Of a DNA stretch of 64,000 nt, positions 2,840 through 58,990 are shown piece by piece. Location: assembly GCA_000146465.1 (NCBI GenBank), contig CP001951.1; one strand, written 5' to 3'. The notes beneath the pieces were generated by a model, which was given only the letters and a program-made list of their open reading frames with translations, was not told the DNA's origin and made no database searches. Each line of letters starts with the position of its first letter. The stretch's first letter is position 1. Made by a program: the position numbers and the translations under genes.

Positions 2840-4369
2840 AAATCCAAATTGATCTCCAATCTCATCTACTTTCTTCCGGAGGTCATTGGACAACCTTGGT
2901 GGCTCAAACGCAAGAATATTAGACAAGTAGTACATAACTATGGAATGCCCTTCTACCAATGGTTTTATACGCCTTAAGATCCTTAGATGCTCCATCGGCA
3001 TCTCTTCTATAATTCTTACAATCTCCATCAGAATCTGTACGTCCGATGCTTTTTGCTCAATCATTCCTTTCACTATTCCTATTATTTTTGTGGCATGGCC
3101 CTCCATGTATTTGTTTATCATCTTGTACAAGTCTTTAACATCTTCCGAGTCTGGAGGTCCCAGCAAATGCTTCGTTTCGTAGATGTCCTTTATTACAGAT
3201 TCGAGATCAGAGAACTTTTTTAGCTCCACCGACTCATAGCATTTATCTATATATTCCAGTACCTTATTTTTTAGATGTCTTTTCTCTTCTTTGGAAACAA
3301 CATCAATAAAAAGATTGAAAACATCCTCCATGTGTGCCATTGCATCTTTAAATGTCTCAACTGTTACAGAAGGTATCTTTCTAAACCCATCGTCAATCAC
3401 TTTGGTCTTGACCCTCTTAAGATGAGAAAAGTAAACCATTTTGGCATCTGATGAAAGCTCGACCACCTTTGTGTTTTCTTTTAGTTTTCTTATCCACACC
3501 TTGATGAAAAGTAGTTCCTTGTTGTACAAAATCTTTTCAATACATTCAAAATAGTGATCCGTTGCTAGGATTTGGATCTTTCCATCAACCCTCCCCATAA
3601 TCTTCAGATAGTGTCTTGTAATTTCTTTCAGACACTCTTCCTCATCTAGATAAGATAGTTCTAAACTCTTTGTACTATTTTCCTTGAAGTTGACTAATAG
3701 AGTATTCATAATTTTATGTTCGGACTTGTGCTCGCAAACCTTAAAATACAAATCAAAGTAGTAAAGTGCCTCATGGAAGGTGCATCCAGGCCTCTGAATA
3801 TTCCTGTAGATGATTTCTAGGAATTCGCATCTTTCATCGTGGATGGAATTCCAAACCTTCTGTATATACACAGAGTTCTTCAGTTCCAAATACATCTCCA
3901 TGGCGCCTTTGTATATGTCAACAAACCTCTCGAGATTATGGAGATTTCTTCGAAGATAAAACTTGACATTGAACAATAAAGAATATTTCTTCATGTAGTA
4001 CTCCCTTCTTCCTCCCTCTATCTTCCCTTCCACATCATCAGATATTCCTGAGGTCATCTTCCTGAACTTTTCTTCAACCACTTTAATGTTGTTTTCAAGA
4101 TCTGTGGTGAATTCCTTATCATATCCTTTCTGCTTGATATCTACCCAAATCTCTTCTAAAACTGTTCTACACTGCACAAACTTTCCAAAGTGCTGCTTCA
4201 CAAGCTGCTTATTTCTAACCTTTGTTCTATTTATCACCTTTGTCAAGAATATCAACGCATCATTCAGATCATACTCGGTAGCATTTGCATATGTCTTGTT
4301 TATCACATCCACTGCATTGAACTCTTTGCCGGGGTTGCCTGGCTCCTGGCTCTCCGCATCCATAGCCAT
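2825..4369 (-). CDS. hypothetical protein, possibly a tethering-complex subunit (CATCHR/Sec5-like motif [10 protein letters not shown])
   Basis: Long ORF; the track start at 4426 is a GTG codon. The first ATG at 4369 lies just downstream of a C-rich motif and gives 514 aa. Predicted helical, with only weak similarity to the FxxFVxCxxTI motif of exocyst Sec5 or Vps51. Confidence 0.55.
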
Positions 4370-11310: not shown

Positions 11311-11381
11311 GGCGCCATGGTCCAGTGGTACGATACGTGCTTCGGGTGCACGCGACCCGAGTTCGATTCTCGGTGGCGCCC
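11311..11381 (+). tRNA. tRNA-Pro (anticodon CGG)
   Basis: Cloverleaf folded by hand. Acceptor stem GGCGCCA pairs with TGGCGCC. Anticodon stem CGTGC/GCACG flanks a loop TTCGGGT with U33, anticodon CGG and G37. T-arm is CCGAG-TTCGATT-CTCGG. The 3-bp D-stem includes one G-U pair, and the variable loop is 4 nt. No CCA is encoded. Confidence 0.75.
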
Positions 11382-57141: not shown

Positions 57142-57645
57142 ATGCTGGTTGTGAACGGGACTGGTCTAAGAAGAAACTCAATTATAGAGTTATGTGTGTT
57201 TCCGGACATGAATGTTCATAGAATGATGGTTGAGCTGAGCAAACAGACAGACAATCCTGTATTCTTCGACACCGTTGGAAACCTAAGAGTAGTAGCAGAT
57301 GCCTCGTTTATCCTGAGCTATAGAAAACTTGTGAAGGCACTTCTGTCCCTGAAATCTAGAAGAGGATTTGTGCTGTTCATTGATTCCATTTCATTTCTTG
57401 CAGATAAATCTGTGGCAAATCTCCAGAGGTTTTACAACATTCTGTGGATGCTGATATACGAGAACGATGCCACTATTGTTGTATCGAACCACTACAGGAT
57501 CGTTAGAAATCGAGGAGCTCTTGACTTTGCACTTGAGTTGGGACAGAGGTGGAAAATGATGGTAAGCTACAGGATTATGTATAAATATGTTGGGGACAAG
57601 GTTGTTGCAAAGATCTATAGCGACGAGTTATTTGAGAAAGTTTGA
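57142..57645 (+). CDS. small RecA-fold protein, Rad51-paralog-like with a degenerate Walker A
   Basis: 167 aa. A Walker B-like GFVLFIDSISFL is followed by LWMLIYENDATIVVSNH (compare RecA/Rad51 LxxLAxExxxAVVxTNQ) and ALELGQRWKMMVSYRIMYK. The N-terminal GTGLRRNS replaces a GxxxxGKT P-loop. ATG is preceded by aaccctcctctc. Confidence 0.45.
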   Translation: MLVVNGTGLRRNSIIELCVFPDMNVHRMMVELSKQTDNPVFFDTVGNLRVVADASFILSYRKLVKALLSLKSRRGFVLFIDSISFLADKSVANLQRFYNILWMLIYENDATIVVSNHYRIVRNRGALDFALELGQRWKMMVSYRIMYKYVGDKVVAKIYSDELFEKV

Positions 57646-57710
57646 ATACATGAAAGTTTATAAAACCAATTCACACAACCCCTGTCTTAGATGTTTTATT
57701 CTAAAGCGAC

Positions 57711-57810
57711 TGCCGATGATGAGAGCTCTTGGCTTAGGCTTGCTAGTAGGGATTAAACCCACCCTCTGCAATATCCATATGATGAGAGCAACAAAGAGTC
57801 TCTGAGGCCT
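57711..57810 (+). ncRNA. candidate box C/D small nucleolar RNA
   Basis: Located in the 244-bp convergent spacer. The 5-prime part reads gcc-g-AUGAUGA (C box, 57716-57722). An internal C-prime box AUGAUGA lies at 57779-57785. The D box CUGA at 57802-57805 is followed by ggc, which can pair with the 5-prime gcc to form a terminal stem. A 16-nt putative guide gagcaacaaagagtct lies between C-prime and D. The 11-mer ATGATGAGAGC occurs twice. Confidence 0.3.
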
Positions 57811-57889
57811 TCAAATTAATGTTTATTCCATCTTCCCCCATCGCTTTCCAGAAAGGTCATTGAGGCCAAGCATCATGCATCAAACTGCT

Positions 57890-58990
<1,101 letters not shown>

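Follow-up and report, generated by a model that had tools for sequence, protein, structure and literature searches.

Box C/D snoRNAs have been surveyed in two microsporidian genera, Encephalitozoon and Nosema, and the snoRNA sets of microsporidia are the smallest known among eukaryotes, with about nine members plus U3 in Encephalitozoon (PMC5499648). That survey, by Belkorchia et al. (2017), was a comparison of intergenic regions in synteny among the four Encephalitozoon species that are also considered here, and it reported four new C/D snoRNAs, all of them validated by RACE in E. cuniculi (PMC5499648). These comprise LSU-targeting RNAs of the U31/snR67, U38/snR61 and U40-U46/snR63 types, together with an orphan encoded on E. 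cuniculi chromosome I. A pair of signals, a TATA-like box and a CCC motif, is known from both ncRNA and mRNA genes of Encephalitozoon (PMC5499648). Because the microsporidian sets are the smallest known, each member that is confirmed helps to define the minimum RNA machinery needed for making a eukaryotic ribosome.

The element described here occupies positions 57711-57810 (+ strand) of a 64-kb stretch of DNA, the whole of which was analysed and which we call the window. It resembles the published snoRNAs (PMC5499648) in coming from the same genus and, by our assignment, in belonging to the same RNA class. Like them, it is a conserved block in a syntenic spacer with a TATA-like box and a CCC motif upstream, and like them it has C/D boxes and a terminal stem, with weaker sequences in its centre as putative C-prime and D-prime boxes. 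With the orphan it further shares the absence of an obvious rRNA target. Since conserved boxes, covarying stems and an upstream signal are seen across nine taxa, we take the element, from sequence comparison, to be a genuine box C/D snoRNA gene of Encephalitozoon intestinalis. The reading that we favour, with a probability of about 0.7, is that of a genuine C/D snoRNA gene whose sequence-specific function lies in the invariant apex of an internal hairpin, not in the 16-nt spacer before box D.

A conserved element between convergent genes

The element lies in a convergent spacer of 244 bp between an ORF on the + strand and, on the opposite strand, the gene for methionine aminopeptidase 2 (MetAP2; Table 1). 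The first-pass annotation had called this spacer long for the genome and it does top some 25 neighbouring spacers, yet several of these reach 214-227 bp. On E. intestinalis contigs, the neighbours of MetAP2 are the same as in the window. The comparison covered nine taxa, namely E. intestinalis, E. cuniculi (two assemblies), E. hellem, E. romaleae, Ordospora colligata and four relatives represented by assemblies from public sequencing runs. MetAP2 of the four relatives is 76-82% identical to the query, and that of Ordospora 73%. In the eight other genomes MetAP2 likewise faces a convergent ORF (145-184 aa) across a spacer of 178-354 bp, and the same element of about 100 nt is found in the MetAP2-downstream spacer of all nine taxa. 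In Vairimorpha necatrix another gene lies downstream of MetAP2, and the covariance model (see below) finds no match there.

Table 1. Features of the element and its surroundings, in window coordinates
Feature	Position	Strand	Remarks
Upstream convergent ORF	57142-57645	+	167 aa
TATA-like box TTTATAAAA	57657-57665	+	Direct reading; promoter-like signal
'CCC-like' motif AACCCCTG	57677-57684	+	32 nt upstream of C box; probable start signal, by comparison with PMC5499648
Terminal stem, 5' strand GCC	57712-57714	+	Pairs with 57806-57808
Box C AUGAUGA	57716-57722	+	RUGAUGA in 9/9 taxa
Spacer 1, C to D-prime-like box, GAGCUCUUGG	57723-57732	+	10 nt, variable
D-prime-like box CUUA	57733-57736	+	Hairpin stem directly after; putative assignment from alignment columns 27-30
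Internal hairpin, 5' strand GGCUUGCUAGUAGGG	57737-57751	+	13 pairs with 57762-57775
Apical loop A-UU-AAACCCA	57752-57761	+	AAACCCA (57755-57761) invariant in 9 taxa; preceding 2-3 nt vary
Internal hairpin, 3' strand CCCUCUGCAAUAUC	57762-57775	+	Joins the loop to form invariant AAACCCACCCU, 57755-57765
C-prime box AUGAUGA	57779-57785	+	AUGA alone common to all taxa
Spacer 2, C-prime to D, GAGCAACAAAGAGUCU	57786-57801	+	Variable in sequence and length
Box D CUGA	57802-57805	+	Invariant in 9 taxa
Terminal stem, 3' strand GGC	57806-57808	+	Pairs with 57712-57714
MetAP2 ORF	57890-58966	-	358 aa; methionine aminopeptidase 2, 100% identical to Encephalitozoon intestinalis ATCC 50506

Direct reading of the DNA finds the primary motifs where they had been placed at first pass (Table 1): the C box ATGATGA and a second copy of the same heptamer, the D box CTGA, and the complementary GCC and GGC of the terminal stem. 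The 11-mer ATGATGAGAGC is likewise duplicated within the element, and the 16-nt spacer gagcaacaaagagtct (57786-57801) directly precedes the D box. The chance level of such an arrangement was assessed on both strands; the pattern required a C box followed 50-135 nt later by a D box, together with a terminal stem of 3 bp or more. The window contains four cases, against 1.5 +/- 1.2 in shuffles. This pattern alone is unremarkable; the motifs by themselves are weak evidence and it is the comparison that is decisive. With an internal UGAUGA added to the pattern, the element is the single case in the window, against 0.07 expected. The three further arrangements are all on the minus strand and all without the internal UGAUGA; they are probably chance occurrences, since their number departs from that in shuffles by no more than about two standard deviations.

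Identity over the element is 0.83 among the four Encephalitozoon species, compared with 0.57 in the upstream and 0.38 in the downstream flank. Among all nine taxa the corresponding figures are 0.74, 0.42 and 0.30. Conservation of the boxes in related species, which had been suggested as a check, is evident for box C, as RUGAUGA in every taxon, and for box D, as an invariant CUGA. A perfect C-prime AUGAUGA occurs in E. intestinalis and E. hellem only, by way of a 3-nt insertion that in E. romaleae gives AUGACGA; the other six taxa have (N)AUGAGA. The perfect C-prime and the duplicated 11-mer, both prominent in the first description, are therefore not general features, the former being confined to two of nine taxa and the latter to E. 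intestinalis. The D-prime-like box reads UUGA in five taxa, UCGA in one and CUUA in E. intestinalis, E. hellem and E. romaleae. The top of the hairpin, AGGGA-N2-3-AAACCCACCCU (57748-57765), is invariant in the nine taxa except for the variable N2-3.

A covariance model trained on the nine orthologues reaches 73-100 bits at their own sites and gives no further match with E below 0.5 in 195 kb of sequence, the rest of the window included. A search with Rfam 15 gave no family at gathering score for the element, the best E. intestinalis score being 17.4 bits for snoU25. The weak Rfam matches on the element are to C/D-box families on the + strand, with the exception of the H/ACA family snoR100. The covariance model thus detects the gene cleanly in related genomes, where Rfam yields nothing. 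Elsewhere in the window, a tRNA gene at 11311-11381 (+; 54.8 bits) is the sole Rfam match at gathering score. An ORF of 72 aa (57587-57805, +; MLGTRLLQ...) crosses the whole element and also runs over the end of the upstream gene; almost certainly it is spurious, and it should not enter a gene annotation.

All nine spacers have a CCC-rich motif ahead of the C box, as [AC]ACCCC in eight taxa and as AAGCCC in E. cuniculi, and in most orthologous spacers it is preceded by an A/T-rich, TATA-like stretch. The leader between the CCC motif and the C box is unalignable among taxa. The TATA-like and CCC signals suggest that the gene is a transcription unit in its own right and that its RNA is not cut out of the upstream mRNA; the snoRNA is probably transcribed from its own promoter. 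On the other side, most orthologous spacers have a loosely conserved motif of the type UAA(U/C)(G/A)U after the snoRNA, its versions being TTAATGTTTAT, CTAATGTCTAC, TTAACATTTAT, TTAACATCTAT, CCAACATATGT, GTAACATTTGG and ATAACATATGC. In the window it is TTAATGTTTAT at 57817-57827, 9-19 nt past the terminal stem. The motif could be a 3'-end or termination signal of the snoRNA; read on the other strand (AATAAACATTAA in the window), it could belong to the 3' end of MetAP2.

RNA structure and covariation

Analysis of the nine-taxon alignment with RNAalifold and explicit pair counts supports three helices. Over all of them, pairing is seen in 88.3% of cells; sliding the partners by 1-3 columns lowers the figure to 39.5-52.7%. 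Changes on both sides are seen in eight pairs, against 0-3 in the slid controls, and the observed covariation score was reached by none of 500 shuffles. The terminal stem has three pairs in all taxa (columns 3-5/104-106) and five in relative L033, with double changes from GCC/GGC to GUC/GAC in E. cuniculi and to GGACC/GGUCC in L033.

A C/D kink-turn requires pairing in its stem II. Here G6-A7 of box C pair with C1 of box D and the base preceding it, and stem II is lengthened by two covarying pairs between the first two bases of spacer 1 and the bases before box D. In these columns (12-15 with 97-100) 88.9% of cells are paired, pair 14/98 appearing as GC, AU and UG. The box C/D class and the + strand, as first proposed, are thus upheld by boxes conserved in nine taxa and by covariation in both the terminal stem and the kink-turn pairs.

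The internal hairpin is 13 bp long, with 94.8% of cells paired and compensatory changes at two positions. Columns 35/69 have changed from UA to CG twice, in relatives L033 and L035, and columns 38/66 from CG to UA, where the Ordospora G-to-A change in 'CUAC' is matched by C-to-U opposite. On reading the sequences, the 2-nt insertion in the hairpin of relative L034 pairs with 5'-strand bases that are bulged in other taxa. G-U pairs are frequent, as in columns 32/72 in seven of the nine taxa, and they set the RNA on the + strand.

The 5' flank of this hairpin is UUGA, UCGA or CUUA followed by GGC, mirroring the succession of box D and terminal stem (CUGA-GGC), and its 3' flank is (N)AUGA-GA. The two flanks would correspond to D-prime and C-prime boxes joined by an internal stem, a normal eukaryotic arrangement, and in eukaryotes these internal boxes are usually degenerate. 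The choice of D-prime is a matter of judgement, with CUGC (57766-57769) as an alternative candidate. Neither the D-prime-like box nor the conserved internal hairpin, the site where selection acts, had figured in the first-pass annotation.

Compared with shuffled sequence, the predicted fold has no extra stability (z = -0.05), as is usual for C/D RNAs. Such an unremarkable fold energy would also fit a DNA or mRNA element, for example a shared terminator or a 3'-UTR signal in which the boxes are coincidental, and the element does lie between convergent genes whose 3' ends must form there. Three observations speak against this. The compensatory changes and G-U pairs point to selection on RNA structure of the + strand, the C/D boxes are correctly spaced to a covarying terminal stem in nine taxa, and there is a promoter-like signal upstream. 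We consider it exceedingly improbable that the element is anything other than an RNA gene.

Candidate guides and the invariant apex

The model first put forward made 57786-57801 (AGACUCUUUGUUGCUC) the guide, directing methylation of the rRNA nucleotide paired to the fifth base from box D. The stretch is of adequate length and canonically positioned relative to C-prime and D, and a loose AAAG-N2-4-UCU is found before box D in the four Encephalitozoon species and in relative L032. Among the four Encephalitozoon species, however, its identity is only 0.58, and over nine taxa 0.54, no higher than in the flanks; it is the least conserved part of the element. Depending on the taxon it is 13 to 16 nt long, and the base at the fifth position is A, U, U, U, C and others among species. 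Scans of the rRNAs of other microsporidia with either spacer gave G-U-rich noise only, with no consistent site. Both the conserved guide and the methylation site set by its fifth base accordingly lack support, and we hold this model to be highly improbable. Spacer 1, between C and D-prime, is 10 nt long (13 in relative L035) with an identity of 0.55 over nine taxa. Neither spacer behaves as a conserved rRNA guide, since both vary and the rRNA cores of such close relatives should be near-identical.

Pairing of the two spacers with each other in a rod was also considered and rejected. Cognate duplexes average -4.0 kcal/mol, against -3.3 kcal/mol for non-cognate ones, a difference that is not significant (permutation p = 0.087). 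Examples of such pairing are AUGCAU/AUGCAU in Ordospora and CCC/GGG in relative L035.

Alternatively, AAACCCACCCU (57755-57765) may be a canonical guide, with CUGC (57766-57769) as a degenerate D-prime 9 nt before C-prime. The predicted 2'-O-methylation would then be on the U paired to A57761, in 5'-AGGGU*GGGUUU-3', the target sequence being 5'-AGGGUGGGUUU-3', and the RNA could be one of the LSU-targeting snoRNAs reported for the genus, for example that of the U38/snR61 type. Consistent with this, the 11-mer is invariant in nine taxa and is followed by CUGC, CUAC or CCGC, the short distance to C-prime is typical, and C/D guides of Encephalitozoon lie upstream of weakly conserved central D-prime boxes (PMC5499648). 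Yet CUGC is without the A of the kink-turn-forming GA dinucleotide. Most of the 11-mer, together with CUGC, constitutes the 3' strand of the stem, with compensatory changes (CUAC in Ordospora colligata), and the two extra nucleotides of L034 between 11-mer and CUGC would shift the methylated position by 2 but fit the hairpin. For these three reasons presentation of the sequence in an apical loop is preferred. In the sampled rRNAs of other microsporidia, moreover, AAACCCACCCU finds no partner site even when one mismatch is allowed. A guide role for AAACCCACCCU, the main rival of the favoured reading, is in our judgement unlikely.

Encephalitozoon rDNA is subtelomeric (PMC10158259), and the Rfam search found no rRNA in the 64-kb window. 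The rRNA sample came from scans with a 22-mer of the microsporidian SSU 5' end, which returned 21 metagenome contigs, one contig of a prokaryotic collection and no viral contigs. It represents other microsporidia, none of them Encephalitozoon, and three of the contigs have LSU parts. Duplex scans of these rRNAs gave G-rich noise only. In all, no rRNA, snRNA or tRNA target was found, the rRNAs covered being those of other microsporidia. Some candidate sites were discarded. The SSU motif CAGGAGGGUGG resembles the predicted target but offers only 9-10 bp, and for a similarity of the snoRNA reverse complement to the L1-stalk base and the U38 site the local LSU alignments were no better than shuffles.

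The organization of the rDNA could be seen in some of these contigs. In L020 (1-2900; 3168 onward) and L025 (reverse strand), G+C-rich (59-68%) metagenome contigs of microsporidian type, the next SSU is preceded by the 3' part of the LSU, an order that points to rDNA units in tandem. In L017 the SSU is followed only by long AT-rich tandem repeats, with no LSU.

Since both canonical guide positions vary and the apex is invariant, we place the sequence-specific function of the RNA in AGGGA-N2-3-AAACCCACCCU. The constraint is unusual, leaving the guide positions free to change while the internal hairpin is frozen at its apex. UGGGUUU, the complement of the loop 7-mer, is found in 61 kb of rRNA-bearing sequence at the peptidyl-transferase centre only, at E. 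coli 23S 2580-2586 and at the same site in L025. A chance 7-mer match is expected in about one rRNA set in five; a sequence of this length is too short to carry weight, so that the match is only a lead. A specific proposal built on it would be a C/D RNP that has abandoned canonical guiding, of a type specific to the Encephalitozoon/Ordospora lineage, in which the loop pairs with the universally conserved UGGGUUU of the LSU peptidyl-transferase centre. Such an RNP would help ribosome assembly as a chaperone, in the most reduced system of ribosome biogenesis among eukaryotes. This we regard as decidedly unlikely.

Under the favoured reading, with the function in the hairpin apex, the RNA would be transcribed from its own promoter, comprising the TATA-like box at 57657 and the AACCCCTG motif at 57677, and trimming would remove the variable leader as far as the terminal stem. 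The comparison shows that the RNA folds as a standard two-motif C/D RNA, with a kink-turn formed by the terminal stem and boxes C and D; the putative, degenerate internal D-prime (UUGA/CUUA) and C-prime (AUGA...) are joined by the 13-bp covarying hairpin. The C/D kink-turn recruits Snu13, Nop56/Nop58 and fibrillarin. The snoRNP would then most likely contact pre-rRNA via AAACCCA(CCCU), whose predicted partner is 5'-(AGGG)UGGGUUU-3' and which would serve for pairing of an accessory or chaperone type. That it guides methylation, with the help of a degenerate D-prime, seems less likely by comparison. The testable question raised is whether the RNA is still a methylation guide or has another role.

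Genes for the NAT10/Kre33 RNA cytidine acetyltransferase (L007) and for a Nop-domain protein (L008) lie about 20 kb or less upstream of the window start, the latter on the same chromosome as the element. Their presence means that the protein machinery for C/D-type RNAs is retained in this reduced genome.

Comparison with known snoRNAs

The method of Belkorchia et al. should have detected this conserved block, so the locus may already be catalogued in their survey (PMC5499648); the kind of gene is well known and the instance possibly published already. Their U46-type gene has no TATA-like box in E. intestinalis or E. cuniculi (PMC5499648), whereas the element has one. Unlike the U31 and U46 types, moreover, the element has no convincing guide to the universal P-loop (CUGGGGCGG; the U31 site) or to H69 (GUAACUAUGAC; the U46 site): in the real sequences the pairing runs are short, G-U-rich and scattered among taxa, as by chance, which also tells against AAACCCACCCU as a guide of either type. 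The orphan's chromosome I is presumably excluded too, the element's contig of about 238-300 kb being too large for it by the chromosome sizes of E. cuniculi; locus tags and accession order would put the locus on chromosome X. The lack of a P-loop or H69 guide, the TATA-like box and the size of the contig together leave a U38/snR61-type or an unlisted gene.

A guide of the U38/snR61 type would pair over GGUAAGCA*G such that the A faces the fifth base ahead of D-prime. GCUUGCUAGC pairs with GCUGGUAAGC of another microsporidian LSU over 10 bp, including two G-U pairs, which is chance-level by estimate; in this pairing the U38 target A is unpaired and no D-type box comes after. UCUGC could also pair with GCAGA of the yeast/human U38 site.

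Among Rfam families, the match to snoU25 (RF01298), with a gathering score of 50, rests on boxes and terminal stem. Plant snoZ278 (RF00201) scores 29.4 bits with the orthologue in relative L035, against a gathering score of 36, and 11.6 bits with the window copy. The L035 orthologue is at 3630-3725 (-) in the assembly of run DRR353006, and its snoZ278 match has E = 2e-4 in a 201-nt search. The alignment takes in both spacers (CCC..UGAUU.GAGG and AACGGG.UU.CUGAGG). Because the window copy scores so low, the likeness to snoZ278 concerns the spacers of the L035 lineage only.

Several other classes were considered. U3 gave no Rfam match at gathering score in the window, nor one at E<=10 on the element, and the leader is unalignable. 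By-eye comparison with the sequences of U14 domains A and B found no U14-like element, and an acetylation guide of the U13/snR4 type was dropped after a by-eye comparison with its motifs. A telomerase template was dropped after a by-eye check, the telomere repeat being TTAGG (PMC10158259).

Whether it adds one snoRNA or independently confirms one, the locus extends its range to Ordospora and four relatives. The order of parts (C, spacer, D-prime, stem-loop, C-prime, spacer, D) is that of typical C/D snoRNAs with a D-prime/C-prime stem, as are the terminal stem of 3-5 bp and the G-C and A-U pairs that extend kink-turn stem II. In typical guides, however, it is the spacers that are conserved and the stem-loop that is free, whereas the element shows the opposite, with variable spacers and an invariant stem-loop apex. 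Although the chaperone C/D snoRNAs U3, U14 (domain A), U8 and snR190 have no sequence similarity to the element, they share with it the C/D scaffold and, if our reading of the apex is correct, a pairing element outside the guide position.
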